64,000 nt of DNA. Origin: Escherichia coli (lineage in GTDB: Bacteria; Pseudomonadota; Gammaproteobacteria; Enterobacterales; Enterobacteriaceae). The notes beneath the pieces are model-generated. The model had not been told where the DNA came from. It saw only the letters and a program-made list of their open reading frames with translations, and ran no database searches. The DNA is taken from NCBI RefSeq assembly GCF_003334815.1, contig NZ_QOWO01000015.1, one strand, 5' to 3'. The position numbers and the translations under genes were made by a program. Positions 44,609 to 51,892 of the stretch are shown piece after piece. Every line of letters begins with the position of its first letter. Within the stretch, counting starts at the first letter, position 1.

Positions 44609-45562
44609 ATGCGTTTCAGTACACAGATGATGTACCAGCAAAACATGCGTGGTATCACCAATTCTCAGGCAGAATGGATGAAGTACGGCGAACAGATGTC
44701 GACGGGTAAGCGAGTCGTTAACCCTTCTGACGATCCCATTGCTGCATCACAAGCCGTAGTTCTCTCCCAGGCACAGGCGCAAAACAGCCAGTACACGCTG
44801 GCGCGTACTTTCGCCACTCAAAAAGTGTCACTGGAAGAGAGTGTACTTAGCCAGGTCACCACTGCTATCCAGAATGCTCAGGAAAAAATTGTCTACGCCA
44901 GCAATGGCACCTTGAGTGACGATGACCGGGCCTCGCTGGCTACGGATATTCAGGGGCTTCGTGACCAGTTGCTGAATCTGGCAAACACCACTGACGGTAA
45001 CGGGCGCTACATTTTTGCCGGTTATAAAACAGAGACTGCGCCGTTTAGCGAAGAGAAAGGGAAATACGTCGGTGGAGCAGAAAGTATTAAACAACAGGTC
45101 GATGCTTCGCGTTCGATGGTGATAGGGCACACGGGTGACAAAATTTTCGACAGTATTACCAGCAACGCGGTAGCGGAACCAGACGGTAGCGCTTCTGAAA
45201 CCAATCTTTTTGCCATGCTGGATAGTGCCATCGCAGCCCTGAAAACGCCGGTCGCGGATAGCGAAGCGGATAAAGAAACCGCCGCTGCGGCGTTAGATAA
45301 AACCAACCGCGGACTGAAAAACTCGCTGAACAATGTGCTGACTGTTCGCGCGGAATTAGGCACGCAGCTGAACGAACTGGAGTCGCTGGATTCATTAGGT
45401 AGCGATCGCGCTTTAGGGCAAACGCAGCAGATGAGCGATCTGGTTGATGTGGACTGGAATGCAACTATTTCATCTTACATCATGCAGCAAACGGCATTGC
45501 AGGCATCGTATAAAGCATTTACCGATATGCAGGGATTGTCGCTCTTCCAGCTCAGCAAATAA
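44609..45562 (+). CDS. flgL: Flagellar hook-filament junction protein 3 FlgL, 317 aa
   Basis: Recognised translation. Confidence 0.95.
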   Translation: MRFSTQMMYQQNMRGITNSQAEWMKYGEQMSTGKRVVNPSDDPIAASQAVVLSQAQAQNSQYTLARTFATQKVSLEESVLSQVTTAIQNAQEKIVYASNGTLSDDDRASLATDIQGLRDQLLNLANTTDGNGRYIFAGYKTETAPFSEEKGKYVGGAESIKQQVDASRSMVIGHTGDKIFDSITSNAVAEPDGSASETNLFAMLDSAIAALKTPVADSEADKETAAAALDKTNRGLKNSLNNVLTVRAELGTQLNELESLDSLGSDRALGQTQQMSDLVDVDWNATISSYIMQQTALQASYKAFTDMQGLSLFQLSK

Positions 45563-45715
45563 TTTCGCTTTAAAACATATCATGAAACTGGGTATGTTTT
45601 GTCTGCCTGCTCTGGGATCGCTGGGGCGGGCATTTTTTTGCCTATTTTGCATTGTTGGTTAGCAAGGATGCCATTCGATGAATTTTAATATGTTGATTCA
45701 AAGATGAAATAAAAA

Positions 45716-45757: not shown

Positions 45758-48700
45758 TTACTCAACAGGTTGCGGACGCGCAGGAGCGGCAGAGGCATGA
45801 TGTGTTGCCGTATGACCACCTGCGGCACCTTTACCTTCGAAGGCAAAAGTAGGGCGCTGCCAGTCACTGTGACGCGGTGCCTCCGGAACATATTCCGGTG
45901 CTGGAGCGCGCGTCATTGGCGCGGTAGCGTGGTTATGCTCAACGGTGACCTCAGGTTCGACCGCAGCTACCGTTTCAACTTCTGCTGCGACTTCAGCGAC
46001 TACTGGCGCGGCAGGTTGAGCAACAACTTCAGGTTCAGCAACTACAACCTCAGCAGTTTCGACAACTTCTTCAATATCTGCCGTCTCTTCCTGCGGTTCA
46101 ACCACCGGTTCTGCTTGTTCTGCAACTTCCTGGGCTACGGCAACATCAGACTCGGTAATCACCTGCGGCTGTTCAGTTACCGCGGCAGCGATCACTTCAG
46201 GATGCGTCGTTTCAACCACTTCCGGTTGCGGTTCGGCAACCTGAACGGGGGCTTCTACGACACCGGCCACTTCTTCAACAACTGGCGCGCTAACAACCGG
46301 TTCGATAGCGGCGGCGACAGGGACCTCAGTCACCATCGGCTGCACATGTACTTCTTCCTGTTCGCGCTGCTCTTCAACCTGTACATCTTGCGGACGTACA
46401 ATTGGATAGCGGATCCAGACTTTGCCAGAGGCCAGTTCCGGAGACGCGCACGCTACGGTCAACGGCATTGGCGACTGGGTTGGATAACGCTCGTCACGAT
46501 AGCGACGACGACGCTGACCACTTACGCGCAGGTGACGAGGCGAGCGGCGAGAACGACGCGGCATGCCACCGTTGTCACGGTTATCAGCATTGTTCTCTTC
46601 TTGCTGTTCTGGTGCAGTTTGCGCTACGACTGGCAGCGGGACTTTCACCAGTTCTGTGCGTGGAGCTGGCGCTTCCTGAACAATTGGTTCGGCAGCGACA
46701 GTTTCTTCAACCACCGGTGCGACTACCGCTTCTTCGGCTACGCTTTGCTCGTAACGCACTTTCTGATTGAGCTGACGCTGTTTACGACGCGGCTGAACCG
46801 GACGTACACGTTCTTCCTGTTCGGTTTCCTGAACAGATTGCTCTTCAACATTCAGCGCCTTCGCTTCTTGTTGCGCCTGACGTTTATCATCATTACGGCG
46901 GCGGCTACGTTCACGACGCGGCGCTTGCTGCTCGTCGGCGGTACGCGCTTTTTCCGTTACCTCAGCCTGCTGACGGCTCTCACGCGTCTCGGCAGTCTGC
47001 TGCTGTGCCTGGCGACGATTACGACGGTTTTCTTCGCGATTATCGCTGCCTTCAGTACGTTCACTACGGGTGTCGCGGCGCTCATTACGGTCACGGCGGT
47101 TGTTCTGACGAGGCTTGCGACGATCCTGTTGACGTTCCGGTTTCGCTTCTGCTTTCGGTGCTGGTTGCTCGGTCGGTTTGGTTTCTTCACCACCGCTGAA
47201 CAGCGCTTTCAGTGCGCCGAAGAAGCGGCTCAACAGCCCAGGTTGTGCAGGAGCTGCTGGTGTTGCCGGTGCAGCTTTCGGTGCTGGAGCTACAACAGGC
47301 GCGGCAGGTTCAGCTGGCGTTGGCGCAGGCGGCACATCCGGCATGGCAAAGGTTGCCAGCGCAGGTTGTTCCGGACGCTTACGTTCAGCGAACTCTTCTT
47401 CAGACGGCAGCGCCATCGCTTCTTCATGCAGCTTCGGCAGCATGTAGCTTAAGGTTGGGGTTTCTTCCCCTTTACGCACGCGCAGCACGTGGTAGTGCGG
47501 GGTTTCCATCTGATCGTTTGGCACAATTACACAGCGCACACCGTCCTGACGAGTTTCAATGGCATTTACCGCAGAACGTTTTTCATTCAGCAGGTAAGAA
47601 GCGATTGGCACAGGAACAATGGCGTGAACTTCCTGGGTGTTCTCTTTCAGCGCTTCTTCTTCGATCAGACGCAGAATAGAGAGCGACAGCGATTCGTTGT
47701 CACGCACGGTGCCAGTACCAGAACAACGCGGACAAACGTGATGACTGGATTCACCCAGTGATGGGCTCAGGCGCTGACGGGACATTTCCAGCAGGCCAAA
47801 GCGAGAAATATGGCTGATTTGAATACGCGCACGGTCCTGACGCACCGCTTCACGCAGACGGTTTTCTACCGCACGCTGGTGGCGTACTGGCGTCATGTCG
47901 ATGAAGTCGATAACAATCAGGCCGCCGAGGTCACGCAGGCGCAGCTGACGAGCAATCTCATCGGCAGCTTCGAGGTTAGTGTTAAACGCGGTTTCTTCGA
48001 TATCGCCGCCGCGGGTCGCGCGTGCGGAGTTGATGTCGATGGCCGTTAACGCTTCGGTGCTGTCGATAACAATGGAACCACCAGACGGCAGACGAACTTC
48101 ACGCTGGAAGGCGGACTCGATCTGTGACTCGATCTGGTAGTGGCTGAACAGCGGGATCTCGCCGGTGTACAGTTTGATTTTGCTGCTGAAATCCGGGCGA
48201 CCTAATGCAGCGATATGCTGACGTGCCAGTTCGAGCACTTTCGGGTTATCGATAAGGATTTCGCCGATGTCCTGACGTAAGTAATCGCGGAATGCGCGAA
48301 CGATTACGTTGCTCTCCTGATGAATCAGGAACGGGGCCGGGCGGCTTTCAGCGGCTTTTTTGATGGCTTCCCAGTGTTTCAGACGGAAGCTTAAATCCCA
48401 TTGCAGCGCCTCAGCAGATTTGCCGACGCCAGCGGTGCGCACGATAAGCCCCATGCCTTCCGGCAGTTCAAGGCTTGCCAGTGCTTCTTTTAATTCGGTA
48501 CGGTCGTCGCCTTCGATACGGCGAGAAATGCCACCCGCGCGCGGGTTGTTCGGCATCAGAACCAGATAGCTACCCGCCAGACTGATAAAGGTGGTTAATG
48601 CCGCGCCTTTGTTGCCGCGCTCTTCTTTATCGATCTGAACAATGACTTCCTGACCTTCACGCAACACATCTTTAATGTTGGGACGACCATGAGCACTGTA

Positions 48701-48943
48701 GTTAGCAGGGAAATATTCGCGGGCAATTTCTTTTAGTGGGAGGAAACCGTGACGTTCAGCGCCGTAATCAACAAAAGCAGCTTCCAGACTCGGTTCAATG
48801 CGGGTGATTTTACCTTTGTAGATGTTTGCCTTTTTCTGCTCGTGCCCTGGACTTTCGATATCCAGGTCATACAGACGCTGCCCATCTACAAGGGCAACGC
48901 GCAACTCTTCCTGCTGAGTTGCGTTGATTAACATTCTTTTCAT
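45758..48943 (-). CDS. rne: Ribonuclease E, 1061 aa: N-terminal catalytic half plus Arg/Pro/Glu-rich low-complexity degradosome scaffold
   Basis: Translation [61 protein letters not shown]...; length 1061. Confidence 0.97.
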
Positions 48944-49304
48944 CGTAACTTACTCATTATTCTTACATTGACGACTAAGCTGCGGGCAAAGTAACGCCTT
49001 TCCGGGTGTGAACCGATGGCCTCGTGTCTAGTCGCGTCGCCAACCTCACGGTTATCGTCAGCTCAAAGAGGCGCAGAGTGTCGGTTGCCCGTTTTTCATG
49101 CGGAAAAACAGCGCAATTATCAAAGAAACAGACTGGGTATTACTCTCCAGAAATATTTCCATCTACCGGTAAGGACTGCAACCCGCAGCCCGCTAACTGC
49201 CTGAAAGATCAATACGTCTTACGCCATTGCTGCGTGGATGATCGGTCGGGCAAAATGGGTTATTCCGTAAAATTTCTTGTTTTAACAAGGATGGACACGG
49301 AAAC
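48944..49304 (-). promoter_or_regulatory. Long rne 5' untranslated leader (autoregulatory)
   Basis: Non-coding region upstream of the rne ATG; extent taken from the known 361-nt leader, not determined from the sequence. Confidence 0.55.
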
Positions 49305-49398
49305 GGCCTCATTATTCCACTGCAAGCCTTGTTATAGCAAGATGACTTTTACCATTTATCACCCGCTTACTCACAGTTTTTTCACTTCTTGCTGGTGA
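49024..49398 (+). CDS. yceQ: Doubtful ORF antisense to the rne leader (corresponds to the annotated hypothetical yceQ)
   Basis: 124-aa ORF with no recognisable domain and no convincing RBS; likely non-coding. Confidence 0.2.
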
Positions 49399-49515
49399 TT
49401 GGTTTAATAACCATCAATAAAGTGATCACGCAGTGAAGTAATAAGGTGCAAAAGTAAATATAAGCATAGAAAAATGAGTGGCGCGAATCCTGTTGGCTAA
49501 TTAGAATCGCCAACC

Positions 49516-50475
49516 ATGAAAACAGAGACTCCATCCGTAAAAATTGTTGCTATCACCGCTGACGAAGCGGGGCAACGTATCGATAACTTTTTGCGTACCC
49601 AATTGAAAGGCGTACCAAAAAGTATGATTTACCGTATTTTGCGTAAAGGCGAAGTGCGGGTGAACAAAAAACGTATTAAGCCTGAATATAAACTCGAAGC
49701 GGGTGATGAGGTGCGTATTCCACCGGTTCGCGTTGCTGAGCGGGAAGAAGAGGCGGTTTCGCCACATCTGCAAAAGGTGGCGGCGCTGGCGGACGTCATC
49801 TTATATGAAGATGATCACATCCTGGTGCTGAATAAACCTTCCGGTACGGCGGTACATGGCGGCAGTGGTTTAAGCTTCGGCGTTATTGAAGGTTTGCGGG
49901 CGTTGCGCCCGGAAGCGCGGTTCCTTGAACTGGTTCATCGTCTTGACCGGGACACCTCAGGTGTTTTGCTGGTAGCGAAAAAACGCTCGGCGTTGCGTTC
50001 TCTGCATGAGCAATTACGTGAAAAAGGGATGCAAAAAGATTACCTGGCGCTGGTGCGCGGTCAGTGGCAGTCGCATGTGAAGAGCGTTCAAGCACCGTTA
50101 CTGAAAAATATTCTGCAAAGCGGCGAACGTATCGTGCGTGTGAGTCAGGAAGGCAAACCGTCGGAAACACGCTTTAAAGTGGAAGAACGCTATGCATTTG
50201 CCACCCTGGTGCGTTGTAGCCCGGTAACAGGGCGTACTCACCAGATCCGTGTGCATACACAATATGCGGGTCATCCGATTGCCTTTGACGATCGCTACGG
50301 TGACCGTGAATTTGACAGGCAGCTCACTGAAGCAGGCACGGGATTAAATCGCCTGTTCCTGCACGCTGCAGCGTTGAAGTTTACTCATCCGGGGACCGGT
50401 GAGGTGATGCGTATCGAAGCTCCGATGGATGAAGGTTTGAAGCGTTGTTTGCAAAAGCTGCGTAACGCGCGCTAA
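49516..50475 (+). CDS. rluC: 23S rRNA pseudouridine(955/2504/2580) synthase RluC, 319 aa
   Basis: Recognised translation with S4 domain and RluA-family catalytic motif HRLDRDTSG. Confidence 0.95.
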   Translation: MKTETPSVKIVAITADEAGQRIDNFLRTQLKGVPKSMIYRILRKGEVRVNKKRIKPEYKLEAGDEVRIPPVRVAEREEEAVSPHLQKVAALADVILYEDDHILVLNKPSGTAVHGGSGLSFGVIEGLRALRPEARFLELVHRLDRDTSGVLLVAKKRSALRSLHEQLREKGMQKDYLALVRGQWQSHVKSVQAPLLKNILQSGERIVRVSQEGKPSETRFKVEERYAFATLVRCSPVTGRTHQIRVHTQYAGHPIAFDDRYGDREFDRQLTEAGTGLNRLFLHAAALKFTHPGTGEVMRIEAPMDEGLKRCLQKLRNAR

Positions 50476-50586: not shown

Positions 50587-51172
50587 CTATCCCATCAGCG
50601 GGTTTTTCCCTTCCCGACGTAACATCTGACACAGCGCGATTAGCGGTAAACCAACCAGCGTGTTAGGATCACGCCCCTCTAAACGCTCAAACAGCGTAAT
50701 GCCAAATCCTTCACTCTTAAAGCTACCCGCGCAGTGCAGGGGATGCTCTTTACGCACGTAATTATCAATCTCCGCCTCGCTCAGGTGACGGAAATGGACG
50801 TCAAAAGGCTCCACTTCTGTTTGCAGATGCCCATTCGCCGAATTAAACAACGCCAGTCCAGTAATAGAAGGTGACGATATTGCCGCTGGCTTTGCGTAAT
50901 TGCAGACGGGCATTTTCTTCCGTTAACGGTTTACCGGTGATTTCGCCATCAAGAACACATACCTGGTCTGAACCAATAATTAAATGATCCGGATAACGTG
51001 ACGCCAGAGATTGCGCTTTTTCTTGTGCCAGTCGAAGCACCAACTGTCGCGGTGATTCGTCGCTGCGTGGGGTTTCGTCGACCTCTGGTGCTGCACATTC
51101 AAAAGAGATTTGTAGTTTTTCCAGAAGAGCGCGACGCCATGGCGAGGTGGAGGCTAAAATAAGTTTAGGCAT
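50587..51172 (-). pseudogene. yceF: Maf-family nucleotide pyrophosphatase yceF interrupted by an apparent +1 frameshift (586 bp instead of 585)
   Basis: Two overlapping minus-strand ORFs (50843-51211 and 50587-50913) in different frames together span one Maf-like protein; the frame switches at ttctattactgg near 50861-50866. Confidence 0.75.
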
Positions 51173-51179
51173 ATTTTTT

Positions 51180-51330
51180 TCCATCAGATATAGCGTATTG
51201 ATGATAGCCATTTTAAACTATGCGCTTCGTTTTGCAGGTTGATGTTTGTTATCAGCACTGAACGAAAATAAAGCAGTAACCCGCAATGTGTGCGAATTAT
51301 TGGCAAAAGGCAACCACAGGCTGCCTTTTT
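51180..51330 (+). ncRNA. sraB: Candidate SraB small RNA in the yceF-yceD intergenic region; boundaries approximate
   Basis: 198-bp non-coding gap; terminator-like aggctgcctttttc at about 51315-51330; identity rests on the known location of sraB, not on a structure I could verify. Confidence 0.3.
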
Positions 51331-51332
51331 CT

Positions 51333-51892
<560 letters not shown>

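Follow-up and report, generated by a model that had tools for sequence, protein, structure and literature searches.

The rne–rluC interval of Escherichia coli: a structured RNase E leader and its promoter overlapped by the doubtful yceQ reading frame

The window analysed here is a stretch of 64,000 nucleotides of Escherichia coli DNA, and all positions below refer to it. Within this window the genes rne and rluC are transcribed divergently from either side of a gap whose limits, 48944–49515, follow from the flanking coding sequences in the list of open reading frames (ORFs). At 572 bp, the gap bears out a first-pass annotation that had described a non-coding interval of about 570 bp between the two genes. 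The features of the locus that we use throughout are as follows.

45758–48943, minus strand: coding sequence of rne (RNase E, 1061 aa), which the leader controls, from the ORF list and the MG1655 annotation.
48944–49304, minus strand: 5' untranslated leader of rne, 361 nt, running from the p1 start at 49304 to the last base ahead of the rne ATG; the match to the Rfam family RF00040 begins exactly at 49304.
48944–48976, minus strand: 3'-terminal, single-stranded part of the leader, nearly invariant (alignment columns 352–386), which contains the ribosome-binding region of rne (AAUAAUGAGUAAGUUACG ahead of the AUG).
48977–49191, minus strand: large multi-branched domain, nucleotides 114–328 of the untranslated region (UTR), consensus helices 7–13.
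49197–49253, minus strand: second hairpin, UTR nucleotides 52–108, helices 3–6, with compensatory changes in 6 of the 11 lower-stem pairs.
49263–49302, minus strand: 5'-terminal hairpin, UTR nucleotides 3–42, helices 1–2, with compensatory changes in three pairs.
49311–49340, minus strand: predicted rne promoter p1, sigma-70-like, with the -35 hexamer TTGCTA at 49340–49335, an 18-nt spacer and the TG-extended -10 hexamer AATAAT at 49316–49311.
49355–49376, plus strand: double DnaA box TTTATCACCCGCTTACTCACAG, 51–72 nt upstream of the p1 start and in the 3' part of the yceQ ORF.
49305–49515, no strand assigned: remainder of the divergent control region, with conserved blocks and promoters known from the literature.
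49024–49398, plus strand: maximal form of the yceQ ORF, which opens with GTG, measures 124 aa and is the longest in the gap; it overlies both leader and promoter and is judged spurious.
49078–49398, plus strand: yceQ (b1085) as annotated in MG1655, 106 aa from the in-frame GTG at 49078, 'DUF2655 domain-containing protein'.
49516–50475, plus strand: coding sequence of rluC, which is divergent from rne and specifies a 23S rRNA pseudouridine synthase, from the ORF list and the MG1655 annotation.

The window represents a K-12-like E. coli, and its rne–rluC interval is identical to that of MG1655; a window position is obtained by subtracting 1095424 from the MG1655 coordinate. Between 45076 and 51577 only two positions differ from MG1655, neither of them within the gap, and every one of the 5,426 complete E. 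coli genomes searched contains the 661 bases around the gap, with an identity of at least 99% in 5,235. The two differences, the only ones in 6.5 kb, are the insertion of a single nucleotide (A) at 50863 and a C>T change at 51113. The insertion falls in yceF, which encodes a Maf-like m7GTP pyrophosphatase, and splits it into two minus-strand ORFs (50587–50913 and 50843–51211); it is possibly a yceF frameshift, or a sequencing error, in this K-12-like strain. Two small RNAs lie nearby on the plus strand, SraB at 51166–51334, between yceF and yceD (Rfam RF00077, 210.6 bits), and FlgO at 45562–45639, just past flgL, the latter taken from the MG1655 annotation. The rne coding sequence itself harbours an antisense ORF of 560 aa with a TTG start (45770–47452, plus strand). 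It is typical of the shadow ORFs found on repetitive segments with many Arg, Glu and Pro codons, and serves as a reminder that ORF length is no proof of a gene here.

On the minus strand of the gap, positions 48968–49304 match RF00040 (rne5, the RNase E 5' UTR element) over the entire model (positions 1–333 of 333), scoring 260.1 bits (E = 1.8e-81) where the gathering score is 180. The match lies directly upstream of the rne ATG (48943) and on the rne-sense strand. The predicted p1 site ends 7 nt before 49304, which would make the leader 361 nt long, in agreement with the published length of the rne 5' UTR (361 nt; PMC6850036). Within the second hairpin, the apical 23 nt (49213–49235, ACGCAGCAAUGGCGUAAGACGUA) are almost invariant across 12 species, and this hairpin is reported as the sensor that binds RNase E in papers that cite the original studies, including PMC11321048 and PMC6850036. 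The multi-branched domain is closed by an 11-bp helix (49181–49191 with 48977–48987) and contains four further helices; helices 7–13 of this domain are 96–100% paired in the 12 species, and five of them (7, 8, 9, 11 and 12) carry compensatory changes. We take the 5'-terminal hairpin (49263–49302), the second hairpin (49197–49253) and the multi-branched domain (48977–49191) to be the elements named hp1, hp2 and hp3 in the literature. In position, strand, length and hairpin layout with covariation, the element corresponds to the rne5 of Enterobacterales and differs from it in nothing, the interval being the type example: its sequence is identical to that of E. coli K-12, in which the element was defined.

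We aligned the leaders of 12 Enterobacterales, E. coli included, and derived a consensus structure with RNAalifold. The consensus comprises 71 pairs, 18 of which show compensatory double changes among the 12 leaders. When counted independently, 96.1% of the cells were paired, compared with 32–40% when the partners were slid by 1–3 columns, and the covariation score of 0.227 (about 0.05 for the slid partners) was reached by none of 500 column shuffles. The consensus pairs include 73 G-U cells versus 9 A-C cells. Since G-U pairs would turn into A-C mismatches on the opposite strand, this asymmetry indicates that the structure has been selected on the rne-sense RNA.

The first-pass annotation had proposed structure prediction of the minus-strand leader as a check, and this proved uninformative by itself: the single-sequence fold has a free energy of -103 kcal/mol and a z-score of -0.66 relative to shuffles, and the antisense strand folds slightly better than the leader (z = -1.91). 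Fold thermodynamics alone can neither single out the leader nor tell the strands apart. Because folding does not discriminate between the strands, covariation analysis was used in its place, and it is the comparative covariation across the 12 leaders that carries the argument. The long rne leader that had been placed in the gap is thus upheld by the full-length rne5 match, by equally placed matches in 11 further Enterobacterales, by covariation and by the G-U asymmetry.

The phylogenetic range of the element was examined in 80 gammaproteobacterial rne loci, gathered with the RNase E catalytic domain as query. Divergent rluC–rne order is kept in 75 of the 80, with gaps of 243–954 bp. Besides E. 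coli, each of the 11 typical Enterobacterales loci gave an RF00040 match at or above the gathering score (232–320 bits), always just before the rne ATG; these loci come from E. albertii, Citrobacter, Superficieibacter, two Enterobacter-like isolates, a Klebsiella-labelled isolate, two Yersinia, two Photorhabdus and Acerihabitans. In the loci of Pasteurellaceae, Vibrio, Shewanella, Pseudoalteromonas, Colwellia and Pseudomonas the family stayed below its gathering score. A permissive threshold returned two sub-threshold matches of 31 bits, one in a Haemophilus locus and one in an Enterobacterales metagenome-assembled genome. We dropped a widening of the rne5 family past Enterobacterales, as no match outside them reached the gathering score. 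The long rluC–rne gaps beyond the range of rne5 suggest that diverged, unmodelled leaders are present in Vibrio, Shewanella, Pseudomonas and others. The 'class II' RNase E leader of the alpha-proteobacterium Caulobacter crescentus is likewise a long, structured feedback leader upstream of rne, but it has another sequence and layout and is unmatched by Rfam rne5 (PMC11321048).

With both strands of 48800–49700 scanned, p1 was the sole promoter-like site, and its -35 and -10 hexamers fall within blocks that are invariant in 13 Enterobacterales. Judged by its position, the predicted p1 would set the transcription start at 49304. Published statements locate the rne promoter inside yceQ (PMC5821084, PMC6242692). 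Further upstream, the double DnaA box at 49355–49376 underlies a DnaA ChIP-seq peak reported at MG1655 position 1144772, which corresponds to 49348 in the window (PMC11317965). The box is kept only in the Escherichia, Salmonella, Citrobacter and Enterobacter-like loci and is absent in Yersinia and Photorhabdus; its presence suggests a link between the initiation of replication and the transcription of RNase E.

According to the literature, further rne promoters lie in the region between p1 and rluC. A reporter construct with 555 bp upstream of rne carried promoters P1 to P4 (PMC8361080), and a paper citing Ow et al. (2002) credits that work with three rne promoters. The promoter and leader of rluC presumably lie in 49305–49515 as well. 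Shortly before the rluC ATG lie two blocks, 49458–49484 (ATATAAGCATAGAAAAATGAGTGGCGC) and 49501–49511 (TTAGAATCGCC), that hardly vary between E. coli and Yersinia, and the GGCG of the former could pair with the CGCC of the latter; these blocks may represent the rluC promoter or leader, or else distal rne promoters. Insertion sequences occupy this part of the gap in two natural isolates. E. coli M217 carries an IS1 in the rne–rluC gap with a 9-bp target duplication at 49457–49465, and E. coli O121 201805972 carries ISEc11 (IS110 family) at 49379–49381, 75 nt ahead of the p1 start of rne. Both elements sit upstream of p1 and leave the leader intact, a placement that fits where insertions are tolerated.

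We confirmed the plus-strand ORF of 124 aa at 49024–49398, to which the first-pass annotation had drawn attention, and the shorter form starting at 49078 is exactly the gene annotated as yceQ in MG1655. The ORF had been described as antisense to the leader. This applies to 49024–49304, whereas its last 94 nt (49305–49398) instead cover the p1 promoter and the double DnaA box. It had further been said to have no recognisable features, which is slightly too strong, as a Shine–Dalgarno (SD)-like AGAGG stands 6 nt upstream of GTG 49078. ORFs of at least 124 aa appeared in 1.2% of dinucleotide shuffles of the 572-bp interval (P = 0.012); an ORF this long is uncommon locally, yet is expected many times per genome.

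The 'DUF2655' label of b1085 has no counterpart in the current family library, and the sequence as found here does not live up to it. The yceQ product matched nothing in Pfam-A even at E ≤ 10 and nothing in NCBIfam at E ≤ 1, the NCBI annotation pipeline PGAP leaves the gap without a gene in the other RefSeq E. coli genomes, among those listed, and the ORF failed the tests for a protein gene described below. A protein database of 5.8 billion clusters returned just 30 matches to yceQ, all from Enterobacteriaceae, with lengths of 61–156 aa and query coverages of 30–98%. Their ends and lengths differ, and their common part is a single stretch of 27 aa, which results from translating, in reverse complement, the invariant apex of hp2 and the closing helix of the branched domain. 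A yceQ protein family built from these 30 enterobacterial ORF calls was rejected, since they have nothing in common beyond the translated invariant core of the RNA.

The yceQ frame is intact only in E. coli, in nearly all of whose genomes it is preserved, and in E. albertii. Two +1 insertions already break the frame in Citrobacter werkmanii, whose nucleotide identity is 90%, and frameshifting indels and stops interrupt it in Citrobacter, Superficieibacter, the Enterobacter-like and Klebsiella-like isolates, Yersinia, Photorhabdus and Acerihabitans. Salmonella and Citrobacter amalonaticus have an 82-codon version from the same GTG, which in Salmonella then runs into a stop. Disrupted alleles also occur within E. 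coli: strain 2014C-3057 has an additional A (+1) at about 49104, within a run of A where a sequencing error is possible, and in the O121 strain the ORF is broken by ISEc11 at 49379–49381.

Substitution patterns likewise distinguish the yceQ frame from its neighbours. Summed over 11 species, substitutions at codon positions 1, 2 and 3 number 375, 296 and 360, so that position 3 receives 35% of them, compared with 74% in the first 375 nt of rluC and 85% in those of rne, both free of indels in the same genomes. Codon position 2 shows a mild deficit (296 versus 360–375). Between E. coli and Salmonella the yceQ frame has a dN/dS of 0.58; the two off-frames give 0.77 and 1.42, and the neighbouring genes 0.00–0.01. 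Its dS (0.22) is four- to seven-fold lower than those of rne and rluC (0.87 and 1.48), and its dN (0.128) is 6- to 30-fold higher than in the neighbouring genes (0.004–0.02). Taken together, the dN and dS values form the pattern that a nucleotide-constrained non-coding element would be expected to leave in such sequence comparisons. E. coli and E. albertii differ at 4 of 375 positions in the ORF and at 38 of 375 in the adjacent segment of rluC, and the ORF therefore survives within Escherichia because its nucleotides are nearly constant. The codon usage of the yceQ frame, at -0.14 log2 odds per codon, lies below the minimum of 0.011 found among 81 same-size chunks of real genes from the window and is no better than that of its own off-frames.

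The first-pass annotation had considered a regulatory RNA region likelier than a protein gene, and this assessment agrees with the unconserved frame, the non-genic codon usage and the lack of a protein-family match in the searches above. Conservation of the yceQ frame at the protein level, which had been named beforehand, along with evidence of translation, as what would speak against it, was looked for and not found. We judge yceQ to be a spurious ORF that probably lies over the leader and promoter by chance; the SD-like AGAGG, the length of the ORF and the deficit at codon position 2 are outweighed.

Published experiments bear on the two other readings that we considered. Price et al. found zero ribosome-profiling reads on yceQ in three conditions, along with transposon insertions within it, and concluded that yceQ encodes no protein and that its deletion is lethal because the rne promoter lies inside (PMC5053530). 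The TraDIS insertions that Goodall et al. saw in yceQ were numerous but all of one orientation (PMC5821084), and in the CRISPRi screen of Rousset et al. only dCas9 guides oriented to block rne transcription were deleterious (PMC6242692). It is very improbable that yceQ is a real, young small protein gene, restricted to Escherichia, which arose de novo antisense to the leader and is translated at a low level or under specific conditions. The intactness of the ORF in E. coli, E. albertii and almost all of the 5,426 E. coli genomes would speak for such a gene, but nucleotide constraint accounts for it (4 versus 38 differences per 375 nt in the ORF and in rluC). Its length (above that of 98.8% of shuffles), the AGAGG 6 nt before GTG 49078, the 82-codon version from the same GTG in Salmonella and C. 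amalonaticus and the continued annotation in MG1655 all fit a gene too. Against these stand the empty ribosome-profiling record (PMC5053530), a plus strand lacking a promoter-like site between 48800 and 49700, substitutions devoid of a codon-position pattern, a dN/dS no better than that of the off-frames, non-genic codon usage, the frameshifted and IS-disrupted alleles of natural strains, and the tolerance of plus-strand-oriented CRISPRi guides and transposon insertions (PMC6242692, PMC5821084).

A shade less probable again is a non-coding antisense RNA from the plus strand that pairs with the rne leader and modulates rne, in the manner of an 'excludon' with transcription from the rluC side. 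An RNA-seq-based tool does list rne-yceQ among the divergent overlapping pairs of E. coli, but the call rests on the overlap of annotated yceQ with the rne 5' UTR and shows no plus-strand transcript (PMC12288877). The plus strand folds slightly better than its shuffles (z = -1.91), whereas the G-U asymmetry assigns selection on the conserved pairs to the minus-strand RNA only; moreover, between 48800 and 49700 the plus strand has neither a promoter-like site nor a terminator, and CRISPRi guides that block plus-strand transcription had no fitness effect (PMC6242692). There is, finally, the slight chance, no greater than that given above to the gene, that an Escherichia-specific de novo gene or a plus-strand antisense transcript is expressed only in conditions outside those profiled. 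If either were true, the constraint on the leader would mask the signatures of coding selection, and comparative tests would be blind to it.

We are highly confident in reading the interval as the control region from which rne and rluC diverge, a confidence that covers jointly the control region, the rne leader and promoter within it and yceQ as a spurious ORF. According to this explanation, the minus-strand sigma-70 promoter p1 would start the transcript at 49304, and the transcript would open with the 361-nt leader, that is, the 5' hairpin, the second hairpin with its invariant apex, the multi-branched domain and the single-stranded ribosome-binding segment. When RNase E activity exceeds demand, the enzyme would bind the leader at the second hairpin and cleave its own mRNA, as the literature describes for the same E. 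coli sequence; by the same accounts, cleavage would shorten the life of the mRNA and less RNase E would be made, a negative feedback in cis. The autoregulatory element in the RNase E 5' UTR was reportedly described by Jain and Belasco in 1995, Diwa et al. in 2000 and Schuck et al. in 2009, as cited in later papers. Experimental proof of leader autoregulation for the identical K-12 sequence is credited to the original work in citing papers, including PMC11321048 and PMC6850036. The comparative data suggest that the yceQ frame persists in Escherichia only through selection on the RNA and the promoter, and its 'essentiality' in deletion collections would reflect the loss of the rne promoter and leader.

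In this respect yceQ resembles ypaB, sroG and psrO, which overlap the nrdA promoter, the ribB riboswitch and the control region of pnp, respectively, and whose apparent essentiality stems from the control region of an overlapping essential neighbour (PMC6242692). It differs from them in overlapping a long, structured leader with an autoregulatory role, the strong nucleotide conservation of which has also yielded a small pseudo 'protein family'.

The rne leader and the non-coding status of yceQ are both already established, and the importance of the present analysis is one of annotation hygiene only: b1085/yceQ is still a coding sequence in the MG1655 record, and older resources list yceQ as essential. 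The locus illustrates how a conserved structured RNA casts a protein 'shadow', here an ORF, a pseudo-family and a former DUF name, and such a shadow can mislead deletion-based calls of essentiality.
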